A stretch of DNA of 64,000 nucleotides from Candidatus Nanoarchaeia archaeon (GCA_036514715.1 DATBWR010000011.1:48102-112101), one strand, 5' to 3'. Shown: positions 24,761-50,159, numbered from the stretch's first letter. Numbers and translations: made by a program. Notes: generated by a model not told the origin, from the sequence alone.

Positions 24761-24795
24761 CTACTATAGGTGTCCACCTCGGGGGTGTACATTAC
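24761..24795 (-). promoter_or_regulatory. conserved palindromic upstream motif, copy 1
   Basis: cactactataggtgtccacctcgggggtgtacatt, about 50 nt upstream of the 24713 start. Near-identical copy at 28240-28273. Confidence 0.45.
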
Positions 24796-24838
24796 AAAAA
24801 TGCCAACAACAAGGTTGTCGTTGGCTTTTTGATTTTTC
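24796..24838. terminator. rho-independent terminator downstream of the RTX-repeat gene
   Basis: GCCAACAACAA-gg-TTGTCGTTGGC hairpin flanked by A/T runs. Confidence 0.5.
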
Positions 24839-24909: not shown

Positions 24910-26046
24910 CTAAGGTAGTTCGCATTTAATCAGCGTTTCTCCAGTGGTACAAGTGTCGATTCCGGAATTCCCGTTCAGATTGTCGGTTCCCGGACCACCG
25001 TCAAGTGAGTCATTGCCCGAACCCCCTTTGATATTGTCATTGCCGTTTTCCCCAAAAAGTTGGTCGATACCACTGCCACCGTCAATGTTATCGTTTTGGT
25101 CTCCGCCAAAGATTTGGTCGTTATCGCTGCCGCCTTTAATATTGTCTTCTCCCACTCCGCCGGTGATCTGGTCATCGCCGCTGCCCCCGTCAATGGTGTC
25201 GTTGCCAATCCCACCGTCAATCAAGTCGTTGCCAGACCCGCCTTTCAAATTATCGTTGCCTTCTCCGCCGACCACCAAGTCGTTACCGCTGCCACTGTCA
25301 ATAGTATCGTTGCCACCCTCACCCAAAATCACGTCGTTACCGCTGCTGTCGTTAACTCGATCGTTACCTTCACCGCCGACAATACAGTCATTACCACTAC
25401 CACCGTCAACCCGATCATTGCCCTCCAGAGCAAAAATCAGGTCGTTATTAGGTGTACCACGGATACGGTCGTTGCCGCTGGTTCCGAAAATTGGGTCACC
25501 GGTAAAATCAATGTCGTCGCAATCTTCGGGCGGGGCAATAACTATGCCAATAGAAAGGTCAAAAACAACAGTCGCCGTCTGAAATTCATTACCGGCACTT
25601 TGGGGAAAACAAACTGTGAAATCGTAATCAAAATTTTGACCAGAGTTGAGGTTACCCAAACTCAGGGCGTTAGGACCAGCGCTATCAGTGAAAAATTGGT
25701 CCAGAGTCTGTGGACCGTAAAGGCTGGTGGTTGTCGTAGAGTTTTCGATTTCGATTTCCAGAACCGACCCCAACGCAAGGTCTTCGTCGGTTTTTACACC
25801 GCGTACGCCAACTTCGCGGGTGACGGCTCCGGTATTAAGCACGTTGACTGTGCGGGTTTCACAATCCCCCGGTTTCATGTCATTGACCACAAAAATTGGA
25901 TCGCCACTGGGAACTCCCCAATCAATATCCAAATCCCCGACTGCCCGCACTGTGCTGGGGAACAAAGCATTAGCCACTGCCACGCTGATAAGTGCCAGTG
26001 TCAAAACCCCTATTCTAATAACCTGAAACTTTCTGTTTTTCTTCAT
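24910..26046 (-). CDS. secreted protein with RTX-type calcium-binding nonapeptide repeats
   Basis: More than 15 tandem 'GG.GND.I.' units (GGSGNDLIDGGIGNDTIDGGSGDDQI...). Signal peptide. Start overlaps the stop of the upstream gene by 4 nt. Confidence 0.75.
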   Translation of the reverse strand: MKKNRKFQVIRIGVLTLALISVAVANALFPSTVRAVGDLDIDWGVPSGDPIFVVNDMKPGDCETRTVNVLNTGAVTREVGVRGVKTDEDLALGSVLEIEIENSTTTTSLYGPQTLDQFFTDSAGPNALSLGNLNSGQNFDYDFTVCFPQSAGNEFQTATVVFDLSIGIVIAPPEDCDDIDFTGDPIFGTSGNDRIRGTPNNDLIFALEGNDRVDGGSGNDCIVGGEGNDRVNDSSGNDVILGEGGNDTIDSGSGNDLVVGGEGNDNLKGGSGNDLIDGGIGNDTIDGGSGDDQITGGVGEDNIKGGSDNDQIFGGDQNDNIDGGSGIDQLFGENGNDNIKGGSGNDSLDGGPGTDNLNGNSGIDTCTTGETLIKCELP

Positions 26047-27230
26047 TGGTCACAATTTCCAAACTCAGCTGTAATGGCGTCAATATCGAAACCATCTGCG
26101 TCTGATGTATGTGAATTGGGAAATGGTGTACTCTCCGTTAACCTTACGAACTTAATTGACGAAAGTCCTGTCCCAGAAAAACCCAACTCACTAATACCAT
26201 CGCCACCAACACCTGGTTCGCTAGTAACGTTACCTATGTTGTAATAAGTTATCCCATCCTGACTGACCTCAACTGTGGCTTGTTCTAACGGATATGTTGC
26301 TCGTCCGTTAGTTGCTTCATAAAAAGTAAGTATCGCAGGACCAACATCGAGAATTTGGTATGGAAAAACATAGGTGGCTACACCAGTATAAAACCCAAGA
26401 CTATAAAATCCTGTACTTCCACCAATAACCCAATCTTTTATTAATGCGGCATTGGGATCAGTTCTAGCCGGATTAGTTATTGGCGACCCATTTTTCAAAG
26501 TTCCTTGAGTTGTTTCCTCATCGATGTAACTAGCTAGTAGAGTTGGGTTCTCGTCGCAAAAGGCTTCGGCAGCAGAAAATACATTATTAGTACTCGTTTC
26601 AACATCACTGAAAAACGCGTGGGAGCTTCCCAAAAATATTGCGGCCATGAAAAACATCGCAAAAGGTTTAGCAAAGTCTAAATTGCTACTTTTCTGTGGT
26701 TTTTTCTTTAATTCTTCCCAAATGGAAATTAATTCGGAAATAATTATTAATAAGGTGGGAATGATTATCAGCAGGAAAAAGCCTAAGGGTTGTTTAACAA
26801 AATCCACAAACCTTCCAACATAAGGAACAGAAAGGTTAACTCTGCCAACCACGTCTTTCTCAGCAGTCAAAGAGCTGTCAGGGTCTTCGTTAGCATCTCC
26901 CTTTGTTTCAAACATTTTCTCGCCAGTGGCGCGATCCACTCTTACTACCCGGTGACTGACTAGCTCACTACCGGATTTAAAAGTGACAATATCACCTTCA
27001 ACGTAATTTACTCCCGCACCATCAAGGGGCTTTTTAGTTACAAGCACTAGGGAACCAGCCGGAACAGCGGGCTCCATACTGCCTGTCTTTACCACTAAAG
27101 GTTTTAGCGGTAAAGGCAAATTTAAGTACGCACCGATTGTCAGCAGCATAATGCTGCCAAACACGAGCAGTGTAGTTAATTTAAGTGTCGTTAGTAATAC
27201 TTTCAAACCTATACTCCAAATCCTTGACAA
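26043..27230 (-). CDS. SipW-type (S26B) signal peptidase I fused to a SipW-cognate signal peptide plus TasA-like substrate domain
   Basis: N-terminal half: TM, 'KTGSMEP' (Ser), 'VSHRVV' (His), 'KGDANEDPD' box, second TM. C-terminal half: 'KKKPQKSS..FAMFFMAAIFLGSSHAFFSDVETSTNNVFSAAEAF', which matches the SipW-cognate signal class, then about 190 aa. Confidence 0.7.
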   Translation of the reverse strand: MSRIWSIGLKVLLTTLKLTTLLVFGSIMLLTIGAYLNLPLPLKPLVVKTGSMEPAVPAGSLVLVTKKPLDGAGVNYVEGDIVTFKSGSELVSHRVVRVDRATGEKMFETKGDANEDPDSSLTAEKDVVGRVNLSVPYVGRFVDFVKQPLGFFLLIIIPTLLIIISELISIWEELKKKPQKSSNLDFAKPFAMFFMAAIFLGSSHAFFSDVETSTNNVFSAAEAFCDENPTLLASYIDEETTQGTLKNGSPITNPARTDPNAALIKDWVIGGSTGFYSLGFYTGVATYVFPYQILDVGPAILTFYEATNGRATYPLEQATVEVSQDGITYYNIGNVTSEPGVGGDGISELGFSGTGLSSIKFVRLTESTPFPNSHTSDADGFDIDAITAEFGNCDQ

Positions 27231-27343
27231 GGCCGGGCCTTGTCACCACTTGTCACCAACAATGCAGCTTTCCTCTTCGAGGTCCGAGGCCCCCAAGGTC
27301 CTCTTTGCTGTCCAAGGGGGCCTTAACTTTCAAACCTCGGACT

Positions 27344-28207
27344 CTAGAACCCTAGTTTCGAAGGGTTATTCCTGTGCTGAACCACTTGGAAGGACATGTT
27401 CGCTACCAAACTGTCTGTCTCGATTACATTACCAACACCTTCCGGAAGTTCCCAATCAATACCGAAGTAATAAGTTGTACTTCCAACCATACGTCCGTCT
27501 GATACAATCCCTGGGCTAGCTCCTTGGAGAGCGAAAACGGCAGCTAATCCTTGCCAAATGTTATGCGTTTCACTACCTGCATCAAGTGTACCTTGGGAAA
27601 CTAGCTCTGGTTCTTCTGCCTGTTTAATGTTGTCACCTTCTTGTGGGTCAGCACCACATTCAGCACCTAACCCTGAACACTGGAACCCATTGTTAGTTCC
27701 TTCATCTAACCAAATGCTGAACAGAAGATTTTCACGTAATTCCCCACTTGCTACTCCGTCAGGATCGCCTGCTTCCAATTCCTCTTGAAGGTAGGTGTTC
27801 TCTAGATCTTGAACACTGTTAATCACTAATCTTCCCCAAGCGTCGTTGTTAATAACGTGGAGACTGATTGTATTCTCACCACTATCACCAGGCTTGAGGT
27901 CGGAAAGATTGAAGAATTTGTGTGTTGGACCCAAGTCTGTTTGTGCCCAAGTACCGTCACAAGGATCACCCACCAAATCTGGTCGACTTGAACTTGTAGC
28001 TTCAAACTGCCATTGACTACTGGAATTACAGACTAATCCTGCGTAGTGGGCCTCGCTGTCAACCTTTAAGTCAAGACCTCCGGCCGAAAACGTGTTGCCA
28101 GTTGAAGTTTCACTATCGGTGAAGAAGGCGAAGGTGGCACCGATTAAGAGGGCTGCGGCGGCCGCGATCGTCAGACCGCTTGTTACCAATCTTTTGTTGA
28201 TTGTCAT
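27344..28207 (-). CDS. TasA/camelysin-like secreted protein with SipW-cognate class signal peptide
   Basis: 'KRLVTSGLTIAAAAALLIGATFAFFTDSETSTGNTFSAGGLDLKV' matches the SipW-cognate signal consensus (..GTFAyFSDtE.StgNtFtAGtLDL). Confidence 0.75.
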   Translation of the reverse strand: MTINKRLVTSGLTIAAAAALLIGATFAFFTDSETSTGNTFSAGGLDLKVDSEAHYAGLVCNSSSQWQFEATSSSRPDLVGDPCDGTWAQTDLGPTHKFFNLSDLKPGDSGENTISLHVINNDAWGRLVINSVQDLENTYLQEELEAGDPDGVASGELRENLLFSIWLDEGTNNGFQCSGLGAECGADPQEGDNIKQAEEPELVSQGTLDAGSETHNIWQGLAAVFALQGASPGIVSDGRMVGSTTYYFGIDWELPEGVGNVIETDSLVANMSFQVVQHRNNPSKLGF

Positions 28208-28239
28208 TTATTTATTCACCTCCTCTCATATGATCTATA

Positions 28240-28273
28240 ATCACTATAGGTGTACACCTCGGAGGTGTACATT
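28240..28273 (-). promoter_or_regulatory. conserved palindromic upstream motif, copy 2 (GGTGTACACCTC-G-GAGGTGTACA)
   Basis: atcactataggtgtacacctcggaggtgtacatt, about 35-65 nt upstream of the 28207 start. Perfect 10-bp inverted repeat TGTACACCTC/GAGGTGTACA. Confidence 0.45.
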
Positions 28274-49515: not shown

Positions 49516-49580
49516 TTTACACTCCTTGCGCGCAACGAAGCTGGTCAGTATAATTAAACTTGTCTTTTTTTACGCTTACT

Positions 49581-50159
49581 ATGCTAGAAGAAAAAACTTC
49601 GTTTTGGGCACTGGTTATTGATGTTGTCGAAACCGTCGTCGTCGCGGCGGCGATTTTTGTGGTGGTTTATCTTTTCCTTTTGCAACCCCACCAAGTAAAA
49701 GGTGCTTCAATGAAACCAAATTTCCACGATGGGGAATACATTTTAACTGATAAGGTTTCTTACCGTTTTTCCGAACCCCAAAGGGGTGACGTGATTATTT
49801 TTAAATCGCCAACTGACCCGGATGTAGATTTTATCAAAAGAATAATTGCCTTACCAGGAGAGAGGGTTAAAATTGCCGGCGGTAAAGTAACTATCTTTAA
49901 CGACCAAAACCCAAACGGCCTAACTTTAAACGAACCTTACCAGACTAACGGTTCCACTTCCGCTGGAAAAGAAGCTCCTGACAACACTGAAGTAACTATT
50001 GATAAAGATGAGTATTTTGTTCTGGGAGACAATCGGGTGGAAAGTTTTGACTCTCGAAGCTGGGGGGCCCTACCTAAGAAAAACATTATCGGTAAAGCTT
50101 GGCTGCGTTACTGGCCCTTTTCTAAACTGGGCTTTGTTAAGCACTATCAGTATAAGTGA
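49581..50159 (+). CDS. lepB: signal peptidase I
   Basis: 'GASMKPNF' (Ser box), 'RVIGLPGE', 'GDNRVESFDSRSWG'. ATG at 49581; a possible TTG start at 49560 was also considered. Confidence 0.85.
   Translation: MLEEKTSFWALVIDVVETVVVAAAIFVVVYLFLLQPHQVKGASMKPNFHDGEYILTDKVSYRFSEPQRGDVIIFKSPTDPDVDFIKRIIALPGERVKIAGGKVTIFNDQNPNGLTLNEPYQTNGSTSAGKEAPDNTEVTIDKDEYFVLGDNRVESFDSRSWGALPKKNIIGKAWLRYWPFSKLGFVKHYQYK

Follow-up and report, generated by a model that had tools for sequence, protein, structure and literature searches.

A SipW/Sec11-type signal peptidase fused in frame to a substrate-type cleavage site between a TasA-like and an RTX gene

The window, by which we mean the whole stretch of 64,000 nucleotides that was analysed, carries on its minus strand a cassette of three genes in which a fusion ORF lies between a gene for a TasA/camelysin-like protein and a gene for an RTX protein. 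The features of the cassette are given below in the direction of the genes.

28243..28271, minus strand: promoter-like site, TGTACA-17-TATAGT, preceding the gene of the TasA-like subunit (consensus scan; count not above shuffles)
27344..28207, minus strand: TasA/camelysin-like subunit of 287 aa, its SipW-cognate signal peptide at the N-terminus ending in ...GATFA, followed by FFTDSETSTGNTFSAGGLDL (TIGR04088, PF12389)
27231..27343, minus strand: intergenic hairpin immediately behind the stop of the TasA-like gene, no U-tail (RNA fold)
26043..27230, minus strand: fusion ORF (longest reading 395 aa), SipW/Sec11-type peptidase plus internal signal peptide plus passenger
26727..27170, minus strand: SipW/Sec11-type (S26B) signal peptidase I module, residues 21-168 (TIGR02228, invariant residues, Foldseek)
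26718..26789, minus strand: second membrane span (TM2) of the peptidase, residues 148-171, PLGFFLLIIIPTLLIIISELISIW (AF2 helix 148-175, hydropathy)
26616..26708, minus strand: internal SipW-cognate signal peptide, residues 175-205 (TIGR04088, independent profile)
26613..26618, minus strand: predicted scissile bond between Ala205 and Phe206, with Phe207 at P2' (in-register alignment with 20 free substrates and the neighbouring gene)
26559..26615, minus strand: donor-strand-like segment FFSDVETSTNNVFSAAEAF, residues 206-224 (sequence comparison with the neighbouring TasA-like protein)
26061..26543, minus strand: passenger domain, a galactose-binding-domain-like beta-sandwich, residues ~230-390, ending in ...DGFDIDAI
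24910..26046, minus strand: RTX protein, 378 aa, translationally coupled (PF00353, hhalign)
24802..24825, minus strand: terminator-like hairpin and T-run after the RTX gene (consensus scan only)

As an earlier note on this DNA had claimed, the peptidase runs in frame into a signal-like segment: 26043..27230 on the minus strand is read as one ORF of 395 aa, and no stop codon occurs within it. The database version of the protein (P0001) has 387 aa and starts eight codons later, at a TTG at 27206 with GGAG ahead of it, which is the probable start; residue numbers in this text refer to the 395-aa ORF. Behind the peptidase module the chain continues through TM2, EELKKKPQKSSNLDFAKP and FAMFFMAAIFLGSSHA to the predicted site, and from there through the donor-strand-like segment and 171 more residues to the C-terminus.

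The N-terminal half had been described as an S26B peptidase, and all of the motifs listed for it are present. TIGR02228 scores 92.8 bits on residues 21-168 (cutoff 51.85) and is matched by 34/34 aligned homologs; in this alignment (A1) Ser51 of GSMEP, His93 of VSHRV, and Asp112 and Asp118 of KGDANEDPD, the catalytic residues, are invariant. The codons of Ser51 and His93 lie at 27078-27080 and 26952-26954 (minus strand), and the His in the SHR box takes the place of the Lys of P-type enzymes. Foldseek returned human SEC11C and SEC11A (7p2q_A and 7p2p_A, E 6.6e-6 and 2.5e-5, 28-31% identity, TM score on the target 0.55-0.60). The AF2 helices of the fusion protein span residues 2-35, 148-175 and 187-214; TM1, the first of these, precedes the peptidase module, and TM2, in which P148 and G150 show little or no variation among the 34 homologs, returns the chain to the cytoplasm. 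Judged by these residues and profiles, the N-terminal 170 residues make up a complete S26B peptidase with its catalytic residues intact, apparently active. The Bacillus SipW equivalog model NF046067 gives 99.7 bits, below its cutoff of 190, and on profile scores the enzyme is a distant SipW-like member and no Bacillus SipW equivalog. The fusion ORF is the only ORF with a SipW Ser box in the 64-kb window, which also encodes a LepB-type signal peptidase at 49560..50159 (TIGR02227, 154.7 bits).

A Lys-rich loop, a 12-residue hydrophobic stretch and Ser-His-Ala align residue by residue with free TasA/CalY-type signal peptides, giving an n-region KKKPQK, an h-region FAMFFMAAIFLG and a c-region SSHA with Ser at -3 and Ala at -1. 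The cognate signal begins at about residue 175, behind the complete peptidase and TM2, whereas in other members of the class it forms the N-terminus of the precursor. TIGR04088, a 34-position model, scores 19.4 bits on residues 194-221 against a cutoff of 19. Since this pass was marginal, an independent profile was built from 16 free-standing N-terminal cognate signal peptides; it gave 32.6 bits on residues 193-221, and 0/620 shuffled controls scored. The SipW-cognate motif that had been read into this segment was recovered by both profiles. Among the aligned fusion homologs, 18/34 match TIGR04088, A205 is invariant and F207 nearly so. Position -3 is T, S or A in 29 out of 29 fusions and position -1 is A or S in 27 of them, and the median length of the uncharged run is 20.5 compared to 21 in free substrates. 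Although the peptidases are only ~30% identical, the -3/-1 residues, the aromatics at P1' and P2' and the positive n-region of the fusions match those of free substrates. The fusions have no conserved internal Met from which a separate translation could start. According to PMC10269814, an aromatic P2' residue makes TasA a substrate of SipW and not of LepB. On this sequence pattern, we infer that the bond between Ala205 and Phe206 is cut by a SipW-type enzyme. The claim that a single polypeptide carries both partners also stands, in that an apparently active S26B peptidase is joined to a SipW-cognate site of the substrate type, which lies on the outer side, where the topology requires it.

The segment beyond the site resembles the start of the mature TasA-like protein encoded next to the fusion, with 11 identities over the first 15 residues. 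This segment is of low confidence or disordered in both AF2 models (pLDDT <50 at 209-219), and across different passengers the first 15-20 residues after the site remain TasA-donor-like. The donor strand of B. subtilis TasA is formed by the first 11 mature residues (28-38) (PMC9674648), and the N-terminus of TapA mimics it (PMC9674648; PMC10151520).

The C-terminal ~170 residues had also been taken for a TasA-like domain, and this we reject. PF12389 has no match at E<=1 in the fusion protein, and the TasA core 'G.LDL...PGD' is absent from the passenger, in which the motif is followed by 'AAEAFCDENPT' and not by 'AG.LDL'. The AF2 model of the passenger, a confident fold (pLDDT 88) to which the N-terminal segment does not contribute, is a discoidin / F5-8 type C / CBM32 / SUN-like sandwich and not a TasA-type jelly-roll. 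The passenger module is also found after a camelysin domain (P0017, P0021, P0024-26), and it stands alone behind an N-terminal cognate signal peptide in P0027, P0029, P0033 and P0038; together these occurrences form a Rosetta-stone pattern that suggests, on sequence grounds, that the passenger is a substrate.

The gene upstream of the fusion is the canonical SipW-cognate substrate that it had been called: its product scores 32.5 bits with TIGR04088 (cutoff 19) and 35.5 bits with PF12389 (cutoff 22.5), and the 'LDL', 'KPGD' and 'N..QGD' columns are conserved in its alignment (A5). This product is presumed to be the major fibre subunit, with both a donor strand and an acceptor domain. On the other side, the ATG of the RTX gene overlaps the stop codon of the fusion (ATGA, 26043-26046), and this translational coupling agrees with the co-transcription of the two genes proposed earlier. 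The RTX protein consists of an ordinary signal peptide (..VRA before VG), a TasA-like domain and RTX Ca-binding repeats (residues ~184-378), the last being tandem GGxGxD nonapeptide repeats on which PF00353 scores 148.2 bits in 5 stretches against a gathering score of 23. Its TasA-like domain (residues ~36-170, nt 25537-25941) is without the donor-strand segment; hhalign of its alignment (A6) with that of the TasA-like subunit gave a probability of 97% and E 1.1e-10, with a gap exactly over 'SDTETSTGNTF'. By this comparison the RTX protein is a candidate acceptor-only cap or tip subunit.

The order TasA-like gene, fusion, RTX gene is conserved in four loci (L001, L002, L003, L005), and in another (L004) the passenger is the RTX module itself. 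Folding of 27225-27350 (minus strand) gave -51.1 kcal/mol with z = -2.87, and the intergenic hairpin is possibly an attenuator or RNA-stability element that would set the ratio of major to minor subunit. The hairpin and T-run at 24802..24825 likely end the three-gene unit. The TGTACA/TATAGT hexamer pair is found again at 24763-24791.

In a search for the same fusion among proteins clustered at 50% identity, the Ser box together with an internal site scoring at least 15 bits was present in no fewer than 113 of the 150 top-ranking representatives, and the clusters with this layout belong mostly to Patescibacteria/CPR. The suggestion that the cell is a CPR member is supported, with PyrG being closest to Woykebacteria and Patescibacteria MAGs and the related loci nearly all from Patescibacteria. 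Passengers across the family are of LTD, RTX, Ig-like and TasA types; P0004, P0005 and P0007 share 72-78% identity with the query across peptidase and signal and yet have an LTD as passenger. Databases name the members merely 'signal peptidase I', and no published description of a peptidase-substrate fusion was found in the literature searched. The earlier note's remark that the arrangement is undescribed is consistent with this search, but the arrangement is no lone oddity and marks a large family under a general label.

The dedicated peptidase is fused to a predicted substrate of its own, and the fusion is genuine and kept in evolution. We consider it hardly credible that faulty sequencing or assembly, or a recent pseudogenising mutation, has run a sipW gene and a substrate gene together, although a short unfused SipW beside 1-4 genes with cognate signals is the commonest state in related genomes (among the 81 peptidases of species representatives that are closest to the query, 69 have a length of only 170-250 aa, and most of these stand beside 1-4 such genes). 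At least 6 independent assemblies or runs contain the 387-aa protein without any change, on 7 contigs in all, the fusion is kept at 30-78% identity across more than 100 clusters, and its layout persists down to ~30% identity among homologs. Moreover, TM2 runs directly into the Lys-rich loop that acts as n-region, so that there is no space for a separate start or n-region.

The reading that we favour, with somewhat better than even confidence, is that the fusion is cut after Ala205 and that the passenger thus set free is a TapA-like, donor-only protein with which a fibre is started or anchored. The internal signal peptide would form a third membrane span and expose the site on the outer face, where it would be cut by the protein's own active site (in cis) or by that of a neighbouring copy (in trans), leaving a three-span peptidase and a freed passenger of ~21 kDa. 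On the model of TapA in B. subtilis, the passenger would be a donor-only subunit, whose free N-terminal strand would enter the adjacent TasA-like subunit and thereby start or anchor a donor-strand-exchange fibre, while its lectin-like domain may bind a glycan of the cell envelope or of a partner cell. The RTX protein would be the matching acceptor-only subunit and cap the opposite end of the fibre. The fused enzyme would also have to process the TasA-like protein in trans, being the only SipW-type peptidase in the window, with the general LepB-type enzyme beside it. Fusion would guarantee a low-copy initiator at 1:1 with the peptidase and made right beside it. The likeness to TapA lies in the SipW-type signal and the donor-strand-like start shared with the neighbour; beyond the N-terminal segment there is no detectable sequence or fold homology between TapA and the passenger. 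Because the passengers vary so widely, one shared function is unlikely.

The main rival is that the signal-like segment stays uncut as a third membrane anchor, with the passenger held covalently on the peptidase. Through the exposed donor-like segment, either the TasA-like fibre or the lectin-like domain would then be fastened to the membrane, and the enzyme would thereby double as the base plate of the fibre. TapA is membrane-associated in B. subtilis (PMC10151520), CPR cells need surface attachment structures, and in the AlphaFold model residues 187-214 are one continuous helix, unbroken through the site, which is not placed in the active site. Conservation of FSDxETS could serve the donor-strand function alone (PMC9674648), in which case the -3/-1 residues would be the sole argument for cleavage. 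However, in its -3/-1 residues, aromatic P2' and h-region length the site is indistinguishable from those of free substrates that must be cleaved, and it adjoins an active-looking peptidase of exactly matching specificity. The hydrophobic core of the query, only ~12 residues, is also short for a stable span, and the TasA donor strand begins at the first mature residue (PMC9674648). We therefore regard a permanent tether as a serious though clearly less probable reading. Autoinhibition, in which the tethered site fills the active-site groove and inhibits or tunes the peptidase for as long as no signal or genuine substrate drives it out, is in our view very improbable: a substrate-like sequence tethered to an enzyme is its classic layout, and B. 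subtilis SipW has a second, regulatory role (cited in PMC13082335), but the site nowhere departs from the cleavable consensus and autoinhibition does not need a folded passenger of 170 residues.

It is also conceivable, though unlikely, that the passenger is cleaved and is merely a secreted or surface glycan-binding protein (LTD or RTX in relatives) that uses the SipW pathway, was fused by compaction of a small genome and has no interaction with the TasA-like subunit. Its fold is typical of carbohydrate-binding modules, and passengers are diverse and swapped between close relatives. This would not account for the TasA-donor-like residues that follow the site regardless of passenger, nor for the position of the fusion, which always has a TasA-like gene on one side and a gene for an acceptor-only TasA-like/RTX protein on the other.

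Among known systems the cassette is closest to tapA-sipW-tasA of B. subtilis, in which a dedicated ER/archaeal-type signal peptidase is likewise encoded with TasA-type substrates, the P2' residue is aromatic (PMC10269814) and the mature N-terminus is the donor strand. TapA is a SipW substrate and a minor, donor-only protein with a complete Ig-type beta-sandwich; it donates its N-terminus, occurs only at the filament start and associates with the membrane, and the tapA and sipW genes overlap (PMC10151520; PMC9674648). Here, in contrast, the proposed donor-only protein is covalently attached to the C-terminal side of the peptidase by way of an internal signal peptide, and it is discoidin/CBM32-like with no sequence homology to TapA, which has a V-set Ig fold. 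The gene order also differs (tasA-like, fusion, RTX), and the query cassette has a candidate for the acceptor-only TasA-like/RTX protein that Bacillus is without. The proposed division into donor-only, donor-plus-acceptor and acceptor-only subunits has a parallel in chaperone-usher pili (PMC10151520, PMC9674648), and as in FimH the acceptor-only subunit bears an extra functional domain; this is a functional analogy only, since the proteins are unrelated and there is no usher or periplasmic chaperone here and the envelope is monoderm-like. SipA/LepA of Streptococcus pyogenes (PDB 4n31), which is among the Foldseek matches of the fusion peptidase, is an S26-fold protein dedicated to surface-fibre assembly through pilus polymerisation, but it is catalytically inactive, of the bacterial P-type, acts with sortase pili and has no fused pilin.

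SEC11 and the archaeal Sec11-type enzymes share the Ser-His(-Asp) catalytic core and the fold (Foldseek, 7p2p/7p2q), although SEC11 is part of a multi-subunit complex and carries no substrate. Haloarchaeal long forms have C-terminal extensions as well, but these consist of acidic linkers and additional membrane spans, in which the cognate cleavage motif is absent. Internal signal peptides are cut by type I signal peptidase across the membrane in viral polyproteins such as those of flaviviruses. There too the signal peptide is embedded within a multi-span polyprotein, but the peptidase is a separate host enzyme, whereas here it is in the same polypeptide. The free-standing SipW homologs of CPR/Patescibacteria share the peptidase family, the cognate signal motif and the lineages, and Wang et al. 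2022 (PMC9245690) drew attention to TasA homologs in Patescibacteria. In these free-standing cases enzyme and substrate are separate genes, while the query family joins one predicted substrate to its enzyme. The internal rather than N-terminal site sets the fusion protein apart from known SipW-cognate precursors, and the joining of peptidase and predicted substrate in one chain is a variant of the SipW/TasA system that recurs in more than 100 related protein clusters.

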